Shown here one piece after another: positions 39,779 through 44,302 of a DNA stretch of 64,000 nucleotides. Both the position numbers and the translations under genes were made by a program. The number at the start of each line of letters is the position of its first letter. The stretch's first letter is position 1. The notes under the pieces were generated by a model. It was not told the origin of the DNA and made no database searches. It worked only from the letters and a program-made list of their open reading frames with translations. The stretch comes from Candidatus Liptonbacteria bacterium (GTDB taxonomy: Bacteria; Patescibacteriota; Minisyncoccia; UBA6257; 2-01-FULL-56-20): contig JACPLI010000020.1 in the NCBI GenBank assembly GCA_016186635.1, positions 3,548-67,547 on the forward strand, written 5' to 3'.

Positions 39779-40447
39779 TTACTTCAACCCCAAGATATTT
39801 TTAGCAATGGCCGGCACCTCGCGGCGGAAATATGCCTTTATTTCTCCCCACGTCGCCTTAAAGAAAAGGGTTGGCATAGGGTCGTCTTCCGCCTCCGTAA
39901 AATAAGTTAAGCTTTTGATGAAGTGCGGGAAGTTCAGATTTTTTGTTGGATAGTGTTCTTGCACGCGAGAGAGAATGTCGCAAAGCGGCTCCCGATTTTT
40001 GACATACCAGTACAGGTCAACAAAATCGCGCTTGCGGCAACGCTGACTGATTGCAATAATCTTCATCACCGCAATATCTTCCGGAGGAAGGATTTTAACG
40101 GTGCCGAAACGCGTGAATGTTCCTGAAGCGACGAAAAAGGGATAGGCGATAAAACTCGCTTTTGCTCCCGCATACTCTCCGTATAATGTGCCGGCGGTTG
40201 CCGATGTTGTGTTCCAATCGCCAGTTTTGAGAAGTACCCCTTCGAGCGCAAGCCGGTCAAACTCGGCTTCCGGCGTGAAAAAATCCAAATCAACGGACTG
40301 GCGATGTCCGACTTGCAGCGCGAGCGCCGTGCCCCCCGCGAGATACCAGCCGCCTCCGCGAAAAAGCGGCATCTTTGAGAATGTTTCAAGCGCGTGCTTG
40401 GTGTCCGCAGGCAATGCCTCAAAATGGAATCCATCAACTTGTTGCAT
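39779..40447 (-). CDS. AbiEii/AbiGii-type nucleotidyltransferase toxin
   Basis: YLAGGTALAL..GHR.S.DLDFF and K...R...RDF.D motifs. Confidence 0.9.
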   Translation of the reverse strand: MQQVDGFHFEALPADTKHALETFSKMPLFRGGGWYLAGGTALALQVGHRQSVDLDFFTPEAEFDRLALEGVLLKTGDWNTTSATAGTLYGEYAGAKASFIAYPFFVASGTFTRFGTVKILPPEDIAVMKIIAISQRCRKRDFVDLYWYVKNREPLCDILSRVQEHYPTKNLNFPHFIKSLTYFTEAEDDPMPTLFFKATWGEIKAYFRREVPAIAKNILGLK

Positions 40448-40464
40448 GGTGTGCGGTACCGTTA

Positions 40465-40719
40465 TCAAGCAAACACAAGTTTCCACAATGCTCGCGATTG
40501 CGGCTGCAGCACGCGAGAGGTGAGCACTACCTTCTTGATGAGCGACTTGGGATAATACGCCGCCATCCATCGCAACTCGTCGTCTCTTCCGAAATCCAGA
40601 ATCCGCTCAATCACATAGACCGCGTGTTTCTTCGGGTCAATCGTCTTCGGGTCAACGTCCCAAAAAAGCGATTGCCGAAATCGCATTGCGGGCGTGGCGC
40701 TTTTTTTCGCGACCTTCAT
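40465..40719 (-). CDS. DUF6922-like small partner protein (antitoxin candidate)
   Basis: LFWDVD and YVIERIL.FG motifs, upstream of the AbiEii gene. Confidence 0.8.
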   Translation of the reverse strand: MKVAKKSATPAMRFRQSLFWDVDPKTIDPKKHAVYVIERILDFGRDDELRWMAAYYPKSLIKKVVLTSRVLQPQSRALWKLVFA

Positions 40720-40868
40720 GTGTCGCCTATATTTTAGCATTTTTTACTCATTCTTTCTAATTTATTTCTCTCGGTTTTTTTGTTGCTCCGGATTCCGAAG
40801 TTGGACTTCCGGGAGGAAGGATTGTGATTGTACTTTCTTCCCTCTGATTGAGAAGCCGGAAGCGGGAT

Positions 40869-41300
40869 TTATTTTTCTTTTCCGACGAATGCGCGCACCT
40901 GCCGCGTATATTCCCCAAAATCGCCGTAGTTTTTCTTCGTATTTCGCACAAAGAGAGCCCTATCCAGTTTTTCGTATTGGTGCACAATCATGTTTCGCAC
41001 GCCGACAATCGGAGCTATTGTGAACGCAAAGTTTTTCTCTATCACATTCATCTCGCCAAGCAAGCGGAAGGTGCCCTCCAAATCGTCCGGCGCGCCAAGG
41101 TGTTTTTCCTTGATGATGTGCCGGTTGATATCTATCATGGCGTCAACTGCGAGCTGAAAAACCCGCTCAAGCGCGTGATATTTAACACTATCTTTCAAAA
41201 TATCGTCGTCCGAGAACTCGGCAACAAAGGGCTTTATTTCTCCCACATAACCTGCCAGCAGATGCAGCTTTTTCTCCACAAGCGCAAAATCGAGCGTCAT
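40869..41300 (-). CDS. HEPN/DUF86 (HepT-like) toxin
   Basis: RNMIVHQY (RX4H) motif. Confidence 0.9.
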   Translation of the reverse strand: MTLDFALVEKKLHLLAGYVGEIKPFVAEFSDDDILKDSVKYHALERVFQLAVDAMIDINRHIIKEKHLGAPDDLEGTFRLLGEMNVIEKNFAFTIAPIVGVRNMIVHQYEKLDRALFVRNTKKNYGDFGEYTRQVRAFVGKEK

Positions 41301-41698
41301 AGTTTTGAAAGCGTGTAATCAAGGAAATCCCTTCGCAGTTCAAACAATATTTCTGCATCATCGTAGTTCCGGAGCGCATATAAATATGCCTCGTTAAAAA
41401 GCGATTGACTTCGCTCATACAGCACCACCGCATTCGTCACGATCTGCTTCGCGAGAAGCGGGGGCGCAGTTTTCAGATTCACGAGCGACACCTTGTCGTT
41501 CCGAAAAACCTCCGTCAGGTCGAAATTCAAAAGCACCTCATCGTCAAACGAGAGTTTTTTGTCCGCGAGATATGCCACGTCCACATCGCTTTCCTTGTGC
41601 GTCTGCCCTGTTGCCTGCGAGCCGAAAAGCACGACCAACGAAAGGCCGTATTTCTCGGCAAGCGCGGCGATATGGGGTTGTGTTGATGCAATATTCAT
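41297..41698 (-). CDS. MNT (MntA-like) antitoxin
   Basis: LFGS.A.G...SDVD motif; overlaps the HEPN start. Confidence 0.9.
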   Translation of the reverse strand: MNIASTQPHIAALAEKYGLSLVVLFGSQATGQTHKESDVDVAYLADKKLSFDDEVLLNFDLTEVFRNDKVSLVNLKTAPPLLAKQIVTNAVVLYERSQSLFNEAYLYALRNYDDAEILFELRRDFLDYTLSKL

Positions 41699-41792
41699 GT
41701 GATTTCATCGTACCATGTTTCTCTAAATGCTCCAATAACCCTTATTTTATAATGGTTTCCGACTTGTCCTGAGCTTGCCGAAGGAGAGACGA

Positions 41793-41822
41793 TTGACAAG
41801 ATAGCATAAAGTATGCTATATT
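41793..41822 (+). promoter_or_regulatory. Sigma70-type promoter overlapped by a palindromic operator
   Basis: TTGACA (41793), TGcTATATT, inverted repeat ATAGCATA-AAG-TATGCTAT (41801-41819). Confidence 0.7.
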
Positions 41823-41859
41823 TACACCGTTATTTTGCAGTTCTTTCACACAGCAAAAT

Positions 41860-42348
41860 CGTTTGAACCCCGTTGTTGTACGAGAATAGCACCATGCTAG
41901 TCACTAAGTCCTAATGGCTAAGTTCTAGTGGCTGTCATTGAGCTATTCTCGTGTGAGCGTAGCCAGTATCTTCGCCTCCTGTCTCTTTTGAGAGAATGGA
42001 CGAACGGTATCGCGCTACCGCAACAGCGCATCTCCATTTCCGATGACCTCAGTGGACCGCTGGGTTCGAAACTCGGGCAATGCCCGAGTAATGGTGCAGT
42101 GGGATGATCAAACTGGAAGGGTTCCAGCACTCATCCTTTCCACCCATTACCATGGGGATGGTGGCGGGCAGGATGCCCGCTTCGTGCGGATTCAGATTGG
42201 AAAACCCCTCTATTTTTCGCCCGCAATGTAAAAATGTGCGGGCACGCCGAAAGGCAATGGAGACGACTGAATCCTGTAGATTCGGTCAGGTGGAGCCCTG
42301 AGCTACGTCGAAGGGCTCCACCAATCTCTACTGTTCTCGGTTCCAACG
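41860..42348 (+). ncRNA. Large multi-domain structured RNA candidate, family not recognised
   Basis: Closing stem CGTTTGAACC/GGTTCCAACG with many nested internal helices; follows a promoter and a boxA-like motif. Confidence 0.65.
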
Positions 42349-42394
42349 AGGGAGTTACATTTCTTCCTAAAAATAAAAAATTGAAAACATTGAT

Positions 42395-42468
42395 GGGGCG
42401 AAAGAGTCAAAAACTCAATCGCCCCGCTCAATTGAGTCCATAAGCGAAAGTTTGTGGATTCATAGAGC
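42395..42468 (+). repeat. RNA-motif repeat copy 1 (invariant TCGCCCCGCTCAATTGAGTCC)
   Basis: 21-mer at 42419-42439 with variable hairpins on both sides. Confidence 0.85.
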
Positions 42469-42667
42469 AAGCAGTTCTTTCAAATCAATAAAATTGGAAT
42501 CTGGAAGAATTCGTTGCTGCACTTGTAGGAAGCGCAAAGATTATCAAAATAGTTTTTGCGCTTCCTATGAGGAACGCAGGCGATATCGGCGGGCCGCAAA
42601 CATGCCGATAAACTTCACGCCCACTGGAAAGGCGCTATGCCAAGTCCTACGGGCACGAGGAGATAGT

Positions 42668-43429
42668 ATGGAAAATAACCAGCAGAATCAGTCGTATCGG
42701 GTATTCACCATCAATTCCGGGAGCATCACCGAAGGCGCGCCGGTTCAGATGGTGAAAATCGCGCAAGGGACAGTTGAGATTTTCGCGGTCACGGTCGGGG
42801 AGAGTGGCCGTGGGCGCCAACTCGGTATGGTCCCGGTGGACCGGCCGCCGCACACGGCTTGCTCGAACCGGAATCGAGAAATGTCCGGCGAAAAGTGCGA
42901 CAAATGCGGTGTCGCGCTTGAGAATGGCAAGCACCCGGACAAAGGAGAGGTGCCGGGGCGGCTCATGTTCGCGGAGTTGGGGCAGACAAAGTCCGGGAAA
43001 CCCAAACTTTTCTCGAAACCGTCGGCGACTTCGGATGAAAAGGTCATCGCTGTTTTCAGTACGATGATTGGTTTCCGGGGCGGCAATTCGCATACCGGAG
43101 ACCGCGCGGGGTGGACTTGTTCGTGCGGTGAGTCTGCTGACACCGCCAGGCCGGAAAAGTGCCCCAAGTGCGGTGGGACTGAAGGTCTGAAGAATAAATT
43201 CGCGCAGTTTCCTGGTGAGATTATCTGCCAGGGTACCATCGCCGAAGGAGACGCGGGGCGGATGGGGAGCGGCGAGCAGCTCGTCGCGTTCATGCCGAAG
43301 GATGTGGTTTTCCGAACATCCTACTCGGGGCGGCTCTATGGGAAGCCGGGTGCCCACTATTACAAGTGGACTGGCGAGAAATTCCTCGCCGCCACGTGGG
43401 AAGATCGGTCGGCGGCGGATCTGTTCTAG
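42668..43429 (+). CDS. Orphan protein with two zinc-ribbon-like inserts
   Basis: GAGGAG ribosome site, ATG 42668, CDKCG and CSCG...CPKCG. Confidence 0.8.
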   Translation: MENNQQNQSYRVFTINSGSITEGAPVQMVKIAQGTVEIFAVTVGESGRGRQLGMVPVDRPPHTACSNRNREMSGEKCDKCGVALENGKHPDKGEVPGRLMFAELGQTKSGKPKLFSKPSATSDEKVIAVFSTMIGFRGGNSHTGDRAGWTCSCGESADTARPEKCPKCGGTEGLKNKFAQFPGEIICQGTIAEGDAGRMGSGEQLVAFMPKDVVFRTSYSGRLYGKPGAHYYKWTGEKFLAATWEDRSAADLF

Positions 43430-43480
43430 GTTCCAATCGGGAGAAGGAAAACTTCCTAAAAACAAACCAAAAAACATTTA

Positions 43481-43563
43481 GCGGGCGATTGGGAAAACCT
43501 GATCGCCCCGCTCAATTGAGTCCGTCGCGCCGTGAGTACGGAATGCGGTGGCCTCAACAGAGT
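43481..43563 (+). repeat. RNA-motif repeat copy 2
   Basis: 21-mer at 43503-43523. Confidence 0.85.
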
Positions 43564-43583
43564 GGTTGCTACTTTACAACTTT

Positions 43584-43916
43584 ATGAAAAGAATAATCGT
43601 CCAAAAGGCGACGGATTTCTGGCCAACCTACGACCCTAAGAAATGGGTTGCCTTCGAGGAGGGGAAAAACCCATCGGAGGGGAGTACGGGCAGTACTTTT
43701 GGGTTGGCGGCCATGGCGCTCGCTGCGAACGTGGCCGATGAGAGCGAAATACCGCCGATGCAGGTACGCATCACGGTAACGCTCAATCGGCCAAGGGATG
43801 CGGTACTCATGGTTTGGAAGTTTTTCCTCGCTTTTCTGAAGCTGCTATTTGGGGAAAAGCAGATTCGGATAAGTATGGATCCCTTGTCGATGTTTGTCGA
43901 CAAGGTACAGCGTTGA
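43584..43916 (+). CDS. Small orphan protein
   Basis: ORF filling the space between repeat copies 2 and 3. Confidence 0.6.
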   Translation: MKRIIVQKATDFWPTYDPKKWVAFEEGKNPSEGSTGSTFGLAAMALAANVADESEIPPMQVRITVTLNRPRDAVLMVWKFFLAFLKLLFGEKQIRISMDPLSMFVDKVQR

Positions 43917-43923
43917 AATTTTT

Positions 43924-44000
43924 GCGGGCGAGTGGTTCTATTCCATTCGCCCCGCTCAATTGAGTCCGAGAGTGAAAGATTCTCGCGAGCTGAACAGAGC
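43924..44000 (+). repeat. RNA-motif repeat copy 3
   Basis: 21-mer at 43947-43967. Confidence 0.85.
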
Positions 44001-44038
44001 GATTTAAAAATAAAAACGTGAAAGGAGGTGAAAAGCAA

Positions 44039-44302
44039 ATGCTGAAAATCCCGAAAAACGGGGCGGAAATCCAAACGGTCAAAGGGATACAATATCTCGT
44101 TGCCCGGCTGGATGCGCAGAAAACCTGCGCGGACTACCTGAACGCGCTTCGGAGAGGAGAGACCGTGGTTGTGCCGCTTTCAAAAAGGACACATCTCACG
44201 GGGCTTCTTAAGAGGGAATCCATTTTTACTCGGCAAAAGACACTTGTTGCCGGGAAATGGATCTCTTTCACTCCGTGTGAAGAAAGGGAGTTCAAGCCTT
44301 AA
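44039..44302 (+). CDS. Small basic orphan protein
   Basis: Strong AAAGGAGGTG Shine-Dalgarno before ATG 44039. Confidence 0.7.
   Translation: MLKIPKNGAEIQTVKGIQYLVARLDAQKTCADYLNALRRGETVVVPLSKRTHLTGLLKRESIFTRQKTLVAGKWISFTPCEEREFKP

Follow-up and report, generated by a model that had tools for sequence, protein, structure and literature searches.

Conserved folded RNA ends around a small interchangeable gene: a likelier reading of a 489-nt structured stretch in a Liptonbacteria genome

The 489-nt stretch at positions 41860-42348 of the window, the 64,000 nt of a Candidatus Liptonbacteria contig analysed here (from an ultra-small groundwater bacterium with a genome of 921 kb), raises the question of whether it is one large RNA or an assembly of smaller parts. 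An earlier note, based on hand pairing, had proposed a novel large non-coding RNA. All the helices that it named are found in place. The terminal stem, 41860-41869 with 42339-42348, forms 9 of 10 pairs at a pair probability of 0.8-0.9, and the stem of the first domain (41880/41952, at least 0.93) is firm, as are those at 42265/42287 (0.99) and 42289/42322 (at least 0.88). The GCC-GAAA-GGC hairpin at 42246 is present at a pair probability of just 0.54, while the stem taken to close a second domain, 42031/42263, is in place but has a probability of 0.16-0.20 in the 41826-42500 transcript. The whole stretch folds at -208.6 kcal/mol on the plus strand (z -8.81 against shuffles). Its minus strand also folds (z -6.74), and an equally low fold is found in 1 of 60 random 489-nt stretches drawn from the window. 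The note saw no RNase P, tmRNA, SRP or intron signatures, and in the Rfam 15 scan no family matched at the locus, including the large RNAs listed in the note if they are in Rfam: at gathering score the whole window gave one tRNA and nothing else, and the best E-value over 41700-42700 is only 0.74. ARAGORN reports nothing at the locus, and 17 related loci have no Rfam match except tRNAs. A contig from a public DNA run, which may be the source sample, spans the stretch with 0 differences. The parts of the unit are as follows.

41860..41869 (+): 5' strand of the cassette-closing (leader-trailer) stem
41871..42028 (+): conserved leader domain, a three-way junction
41880-41952 (+): long arm of the leader, with a genome-repeated insert at about 41904-41933
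42031..42045 (+): leader end, with a CTCCATT strand capable of pairing with the trailer and the start codon directly after it
42043..42231 (+): cargo ORF of 62 codons, without a match to any known family and perhaps truncated N-terminally
42219..42322 (+): conserved trailer, with hairpin 42219-42243 and the GCC-GAAA-GGC hairpin 42246-42255
42256-42263 (+): trailer, continued, AATGGAGA, followed by hairpins 42265-42287 and 42289-42322, the latter carrying a genome-repeated insert at its tip
42339..42348 (+): 3' strand of the cassette-closing stem

It is the flanks that fold stably, with z-scores of -4.3 for the leader and -6.3 for the trailer. The interior, 42043-42215, has a z-score of only -1.7 and folds no more strongly than the coding cargo of related cassettes (25 pieces, mean z -2.3). 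The conserved scaffold extends over 41860-42042 on the 5' side and 42219-42348 on the 3' side. In a DNA search, 9 of 101 relatives match piecewise, in the two flanks and not in the middle. After removal of duplicate and near-identical records, 12 trailer-bearing loci were examined, nine of which have a recognisable leader; two others start too near a contig end, and one, L051, has no leader. In all nine leader-bearing loci an ORF opens with the ATG directly after the CTCCATT strand, and its stop codon lies 11-36 nt ahead of the GAAA hairpin. The ORFs in this position are 62 to 265 aa long, and the 11 available when L123 and L124 are added fall into nine unrelated groups by blastp; those scanned against Pfam or PHROGs gave no match of note. 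The clearest exchange is at the orthologous locus L043, which has the window's upstream nucleotidyltransferase gene, promoter, leader, trailer and cassette B in common, with 81-88% of the shorter sequence matched in these parts. Its slot holds a 217-aa gene unrelated to the window cargo (152 matches versus 145+/-4 in shuffles). Comparison of the loci shows the middle of the unit to be a cargo slot with an exchangeable ORF. The cargo looks foreign. No trailer was found in a scan of viral contigs; the cargo of L021 has one relative on a viral contig, which lacks the scaffold. Directly after this homologue, at L126:1890-2400, lie tandem units of about 70 nt, each with a constant AT-rich part and a hairpin-like variable part.

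The cargo ORF of the window has one homologue among 1.84 billion proteins searched with phmmer, the 93-aa protein P0001 (E 1.2e-6), which is identical at 32 of 64 positions (50%) and has the same C-terminal end; the other two of the three matches are repeat-protein noise. Codon-position bias favours the ORF frame (+1.0 versus -6.9 and -2.6), with one antisense frame scoring equally, and the frame stays open in 21% of shuffles. The predicted fold of the product, a four-strand model, is poor (pLDDT 58.5). Word-index protein searches, Pfam, PHROGs and Atlas gave no match to the ORF, no relative of P0001 was found on viral contigs, and a tblastn hit in G026 (E 4e-4) has no scaffold around it. Judged by its single homologue, which conserves the reading frame, 42043-42231 is best described as a real or recently shortened gene and not a conserved RNA domain.

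Two of the competing explanations turn on this interior. A stand-alone large non-coding RNA would account for the fold, the dedicated promoter, the closed ends and the missing Rfam family. Its interior, however, is unconserved, is replaced by a long ORF in every full homologue (9/9 full cassettes) and folds no better than coding sequence. The relatives keep both flanks and carry unrelated ORFs of 145-265 aa between them. What stands of the original proposal is an undescribed, conserved RNA structure with covarying flanks; the single non-coding RNA of about 490 nt appears largely refuted and is very improbable. Alternatively, the scaffold may be the same and the window copy decayed, so that the cargo is a truncated, untranslated remnant and the 489-nt RNA is non-coding in practice. 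P0001 is 30 residues longer at its N-terminus, the junction before the ATG deviates from the consensus, the stop sits inside the first trailer hairpin, and this ORF is the shortest of the 11. Against decay, no break interrupts the frame across the 59 aligned residues, its end coincides with that of P0001, the stop position of 14 nt lies inside the 11-36 nt range, and the codon bias points to the same frame. Decay is unlikely, if the most plausible of the alternatives considered. More probably, the large-RNA candidate consists of two conserved, folded RNA ends that enclose a small interchangeable gene, and it carries a caution for RNA discovery, since a cassette with short cargo can be mistaken for a large non-coding RNA.

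The cassette does not stand alone. The unit opens an array of four ORFs, in which a promoter, a boxA-like site, a closing stem, an ORF and a conserved spacer stem are followed by boxA again. The sites are labelled boxA-like from the general boxA consensus. The remaining features of the array are these.

41793..41822 (+): sigma70-type array promoter, 11/12 consensus matches, extended -10, conserved in relatives
41839..41848 (+): boxA-like site 1, 14 nt before the closing stem
42390..42468 (+): spacer motif 1, a candidate processing site, with a hairpin stacked on a stem that has a 3x2 internal loop (core 42426-42468)
42473..42482 (+): boxA-like site 2, 12 nt before the next closing stem
42493..43438 (+): cassette B, with closing stem 42493/43438 and a different structured leader
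42668-43429 (+): ORF of cassette B, 253 aa, a widespread uncharacterised family
43510..43916 (+): spacer motif 2 (43510-43562) and a 110-aa ORF (43584-43916)
43954..44302 (+): spacer motif 3, degenerate (43954-43999), and an 87-aa ORF (44039-44302)

Only one plus-strand promoter is found in 41600-44300, and the gap between boxA and stem in the array units is 8-16 nt. A palindrome at 41801-41817, between the -35 and -10 elements, is a possible operator and is conserved even in the scaffold-free genomes G093 and G040. The type-A slot ORFs are not preceded by a Shine-Dalgarno sequence. The spacer itself is strongly folded (z -8.7), and its pattern occurs in 17 distinct copies from 18 sources; in G042 it follows a gene and precedes a promoter or terminator, not boxA. 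The cassette B protein has 678 relatives, the few named ones being from CPR and Deltaproteobacteria-type records. It occurs in 4 of 401 class genomes, and viral contigs yielded no relative. The 87-aa ORF also terminates the array of L038. We regard the cassette anatomy proposed here, with 41860-42348 as the opening unit of a variable array of gene cassettes, as very likely.

Similar arrangements are seen elsewhere. In a distant family (G575, L133:470-1530, reverse), a cassette B homologue and a neighbouring orphan each lie behind a boxA-like site and a repeated structured leader, in the layout of the window arrays with a different scaffold. A second array site in the genus (L118:4600-6600, reverse, on G002:C1, with L119 and L120) has long structured regions, several spacers and a hammerhead, and it lies upstream of the same housekeeping genes. 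A third leader type, marked by a GAGAGCAGC arm, recurs in four loci (L123:2470-3130, reverse; L005:1590-1810; L021:2600-2770, reverse; L003:1440-1660), and in L123 it is combined with a type-A trailer.

In related arrays the spacer position, just 5' of a boxA-like site, is taken by a match to the type III hammerhead: twice in L038 (6.7e-8) and once each in L079 (6.2e-5) and L118 (7.5e-4), the values in brackets being E-values. The full-length matches score 46.3, 35.8 and 34.2 bits, all under the Rfam cut-off of 48.5 bits, and the fourth core was found by pattern with only a partial Rfam match. All the matches carry a non-GUC triplet. No type III hammerhead was found in the window's genome by pattern or in the window by Rfam, and no exact copy on viral contigs. 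Three related loci thus have a hammerhead match in place of the spacer, so the spacer is probably where the transcript is cut, by RNase III or by self-cleavage. A bolder proposal is that the spacer at 42390-42468 is itself an undescribed self-cleaving ribozyme, interchangeable with the hammerhead within an RNA-encoded platform for gene capture and expression in CPR bacteria. We consider this doubtful. If it were true, rRNA-type antitermination and leader-trailer pairing would package foreign genes into self-processed, translation-gated mRNA units; since the motif trades places with hammerhead ribozymes, it is in any case an inexpensive candidate for a cleavage assay.

Leader, trailer and spacer all show covariation of the kind expected of RNA structure. 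Both partners have changed in 9 of 27 trailer pairs (10 sequences) and in 6 of 14 spacer pairs (12 sequences), and in each case 0 of 500 shuffles reach the covariation score; in the leader arm, both have changed in 10 of 28 predicted pairs (8 sequences). These counts overstate independence because the 8-12 sequences are related, and the invariance of the trailer 18-mer is due in part to its use as a search pattern. G-U pairs are frequent and strand-specific in all three motifs. By these comparisons, the leader and trailer are conserved, covarying RNA scaffolds. The two long-range stems give weaker signals. In the outer stem native pairing beats cross-pairing weakly (p 0.038), the native partner being best in 2 of 8 rows. 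The inner stem has 10-12 bp in relatives and 8 bp in the window, where its predicted pairing is low, and it shows one-sided changes only, with no two-sided compensatory change. In L123 the trailer motif follows a leader without the complementary strand, and the loop also varies. The hairpin tips hold short repeats, with 5 and 10 copies in the genome, which explain part of the fold stability. Short genome-repeated palindromes lie at 41763-41785, upstream of the promoter, and in the scaffold hairpin tips at 41904-41933 and 42296-42315.

The element lies between genes that resemble uvrA and uvrC, and arrays adjoin one or other of these genes in further members of the genus too. Upstream, on the minus strand at 39779-41698 and divergent from the array promoter, are two toxin-antitoxin pairs, AbiEii with DUF6922 and a nucleotidyltransferase with a HepT-like HEPN protein; a similar pair precedes the arrays in L016 and L043, and one is just upstream of the array of L120. 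RNase III is encoded in all five genus genomes and NusB in that of the window. The 23S rRNA stalk core differs from the cassette stem by one base pair in the three relatives examined. A search of the window's genome for 16S rRNA with Rfam gave no match, though a partial 16S gene lies on its contig C12; the leader of this gene, itself partial, lacks the motif. Several insertions interrupt the partial 16S and 23S genes of this genome, at G000:C12 1-700 and G000:C5 1-800. The boxA-like sites cannot be countering Rho, because Rho is missing in all five genomes. In a crude count, Shine-Dalgarno enrichment is absent (36 versus 36 of 508 long ORFs).

Two further explanations concern the repeats of the cassette. 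The inverted repeats could work in single-stranded DNA, where a recombinase would use them to capture genes in the manner of attC-like or transposon-end sites, with RNA folding incidental. Nested inverted repeats do flank the cargo, replacement is precise at the ATG, and the minus strand folds too (z -6.7). Strand-specific G-U pairs are nevertheless frequent, and GNRA loops, boxA-like sites and hammerheads function as RNA. No recombinase lies in the part of the window from 34 to 50 kb, and the sole tyrosine-recombinase match of the genome is on another contig. No cassette excision joint appears among contigs from 4 DNA runs, although rare forms are lost in such contigs; the joints seen there are pieces of uvrA and uvrC from other organisms. 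This explanation is quite improbable. Still less probable is that the trailer is the captured end of a CRISPR repeat, either a Cas6-type site or a decoy for the repeat, to which the leader strand would be the anti-repeat. Genuine CRISPR repeats do share the 18 nt of the trailer core as their 3' end, and among the loci found with this core 15 of 22 metagenome and 7 of 13 genome loci are arrays; the single-copy cassettes number 7 of 22 and 5 of 13, the rest being CRISPR arrays or one lone repeat (L056). The array of L053 has neighbouring genes that by eye resemble those of type III systems. Each cassette, however, has a single copy and no spacers, and Cas1 is absent from all five genomes. Only the 3' 18-19 nt match, the core consists of a common GAAA tetraloop and 8 nt, arrays offer a pattern many more chances to match, and the loop varies in L123. 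The identity is striking and probably coincidental. CRISPR arrays whose repeat ends in these 18-19 nt are L029, L048, L050, L053 and L058-L062, several of them in records titled Verrucomicrobia.

Two candidates were set aside. A group II intron has no Rfam intron match and no reverse transcriptase in the window's genome, and the sequence of the hairpin after the ORF varies freely. Circularisation and retro-mobility as a retrozyme-like circular RNA were dropped, with RtcB in 0 of 5 genomes and the same lack of a reverse transcriptase. The reverse transcriptases of L072 (G004:C7) and L084-L087 look by eye like those of diversity-generating retroelements; the one on G004:C7, which lies about 4.5 kb downstream of a trailer, is broken into two ORFs.

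The account that we favour, and consider likely, is that leader and trailer scaffolds in the style of an rRNA operon package variable orphan genes into processed single-gene mRNAs, and that recombination between scaffolds swaps the cargo. A single transcript would start at the promoter at 41793. NusB and S10 on boxA may retain the closing stem's 5' strand until transcription has reached the trailer, as has been modelled for rRNA leader-trailer helices. The transcript would be cut at the spacers, the closing stems or both, most simply by RNase III, to give single-gene mRNAs whose ends could be protected by pairing. The inner stem, which covers the bases just before the AUG, might gate or position initiation, and cargo could be replaced through homologous recombination between the common scaffolds. 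Among these parts, comparison shows conserved and covarying flanks, an exchangeable ORF slot, repetition of boxA, closing stem and spacer, and hammerhead matches in place of the spacer at three related loci. Processing into monocistronic units at the RNA level seems somewhat better than an even bet, and recombination as the swapping route about an even one.

CPR genomes are rich in orphan genes. For a reduced genome without Rho or obvious Shine-Dalgarno signals, a reusable scaffold that takes in unrelated genes with a junction precisely at the start codon would offer a concrete and testable way to express newly acquired ones. The analysis also yields three RNA motifs absent from Rfam, the leader, trailer and spacer. 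The type-A scaffold is narrow in range, and a similar layout of boxA, leader and orphan occurs in a distant family. The trailer-bearing records are titled Patescibacteria or Saccharibacteria. The trailer model finds 4 of 125 family and 1 of 151 order genomes, an undercount because it misses a diverged copy in G152, and the trailer 18-mer occurs in 2 of 401 class genomes, the second (L137) without the cassette context. The leader-end pattern finds 1 of 125 family genomes and is too strict, missing the window itself. The spacer model is matched in 7 of 125 family and 2 of 151 order genomes. In the literature searched there is no description of the element, which the supplementary motif lists of RNA-discovery papers could contain.

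Several known systems share some of these features. Integron arrays have one upstream promoter, variable orphan genes and a conserved palindromic repeat between them. The arrays described here likewise have one promoter upstream, variable orphan genes and a repeated palindromic separator, but they differ in having no adjacent integrase, RNA-type pairing in the repeats and gene-specific leader scaffolds of several types. In the mRNAs of type I toxins such as hok and aapA, long-range pairing between the 5' and 3' ends surrounds a short hydrophobic toxin. In the cassette too the 3' end can pair beside the start codon, while its cargo is interchangeable and not a short hydrophobic toxin.

The PeSL cassettes of T4-type phages, as PMC2839356 describes them, are repeated intergenic elements that punctuate runs of hypervariable orphan genes, and shuffling by repeat recombination was proposed; each is a short unit of promoter, terminator hairpin and Shine-Dalgarno sequence. 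Here too repeats flank variable orphan genes. Unlike the PeSLs so described (PMC2839356), they lie on a cellular CPR chromosome, with one promoter per array, boxA-like sites and no sigma70 promoter or Shine-Dalgarno sequence inside each repeat, and have multi-helix leaders and trailers of 130-180 nt that pair across the gene. A mini-circle joint of the PeSL type was looked for and not found among contigs from the 4 DNA runs, a kind of data in which rare forms are lost. In prophages, several hammerheads flank individual non-constant genes, and processing to single-gene mRNAs was proposed (PMC3088659). Related arrays here also have hammerhead matches between cassettes, whereas the window has none, an unrelated stem motif taking the position; no prophage context was seen, and each unit has a boxA and a closing stem, features in which it departs from those prophage genes (PMC3088659).

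The rRNA operon offers a parallel in the order of parts. That boxA anchors the leader strand of the rRNA leader-trailer helix is a published model, and in E. coli the closing stem of 16S needs >17 bp, with a boxA gap of 18-19 nt, according to PMC10250234. As in the boxB, boxA and boxC of that operon (PMC10250234), a hairpin, boxA and a short gap precede the 5' strand of a helix that closes the cargo, and this order recurs ahead of the unit that follows. In its core the stem is similar to the 23S stalk of relatives, and the genes for NusB and RNase III are present. Unlike in the rRNA operon (PMC10250234), the cargo is a protein gene, the closing stem has about 10 bp and the gap is 8-16 nt. The system thus works like a variable array of the PeSL or integron style built from parts like those of an rRNA operon, and is probably a member of none of these classes.
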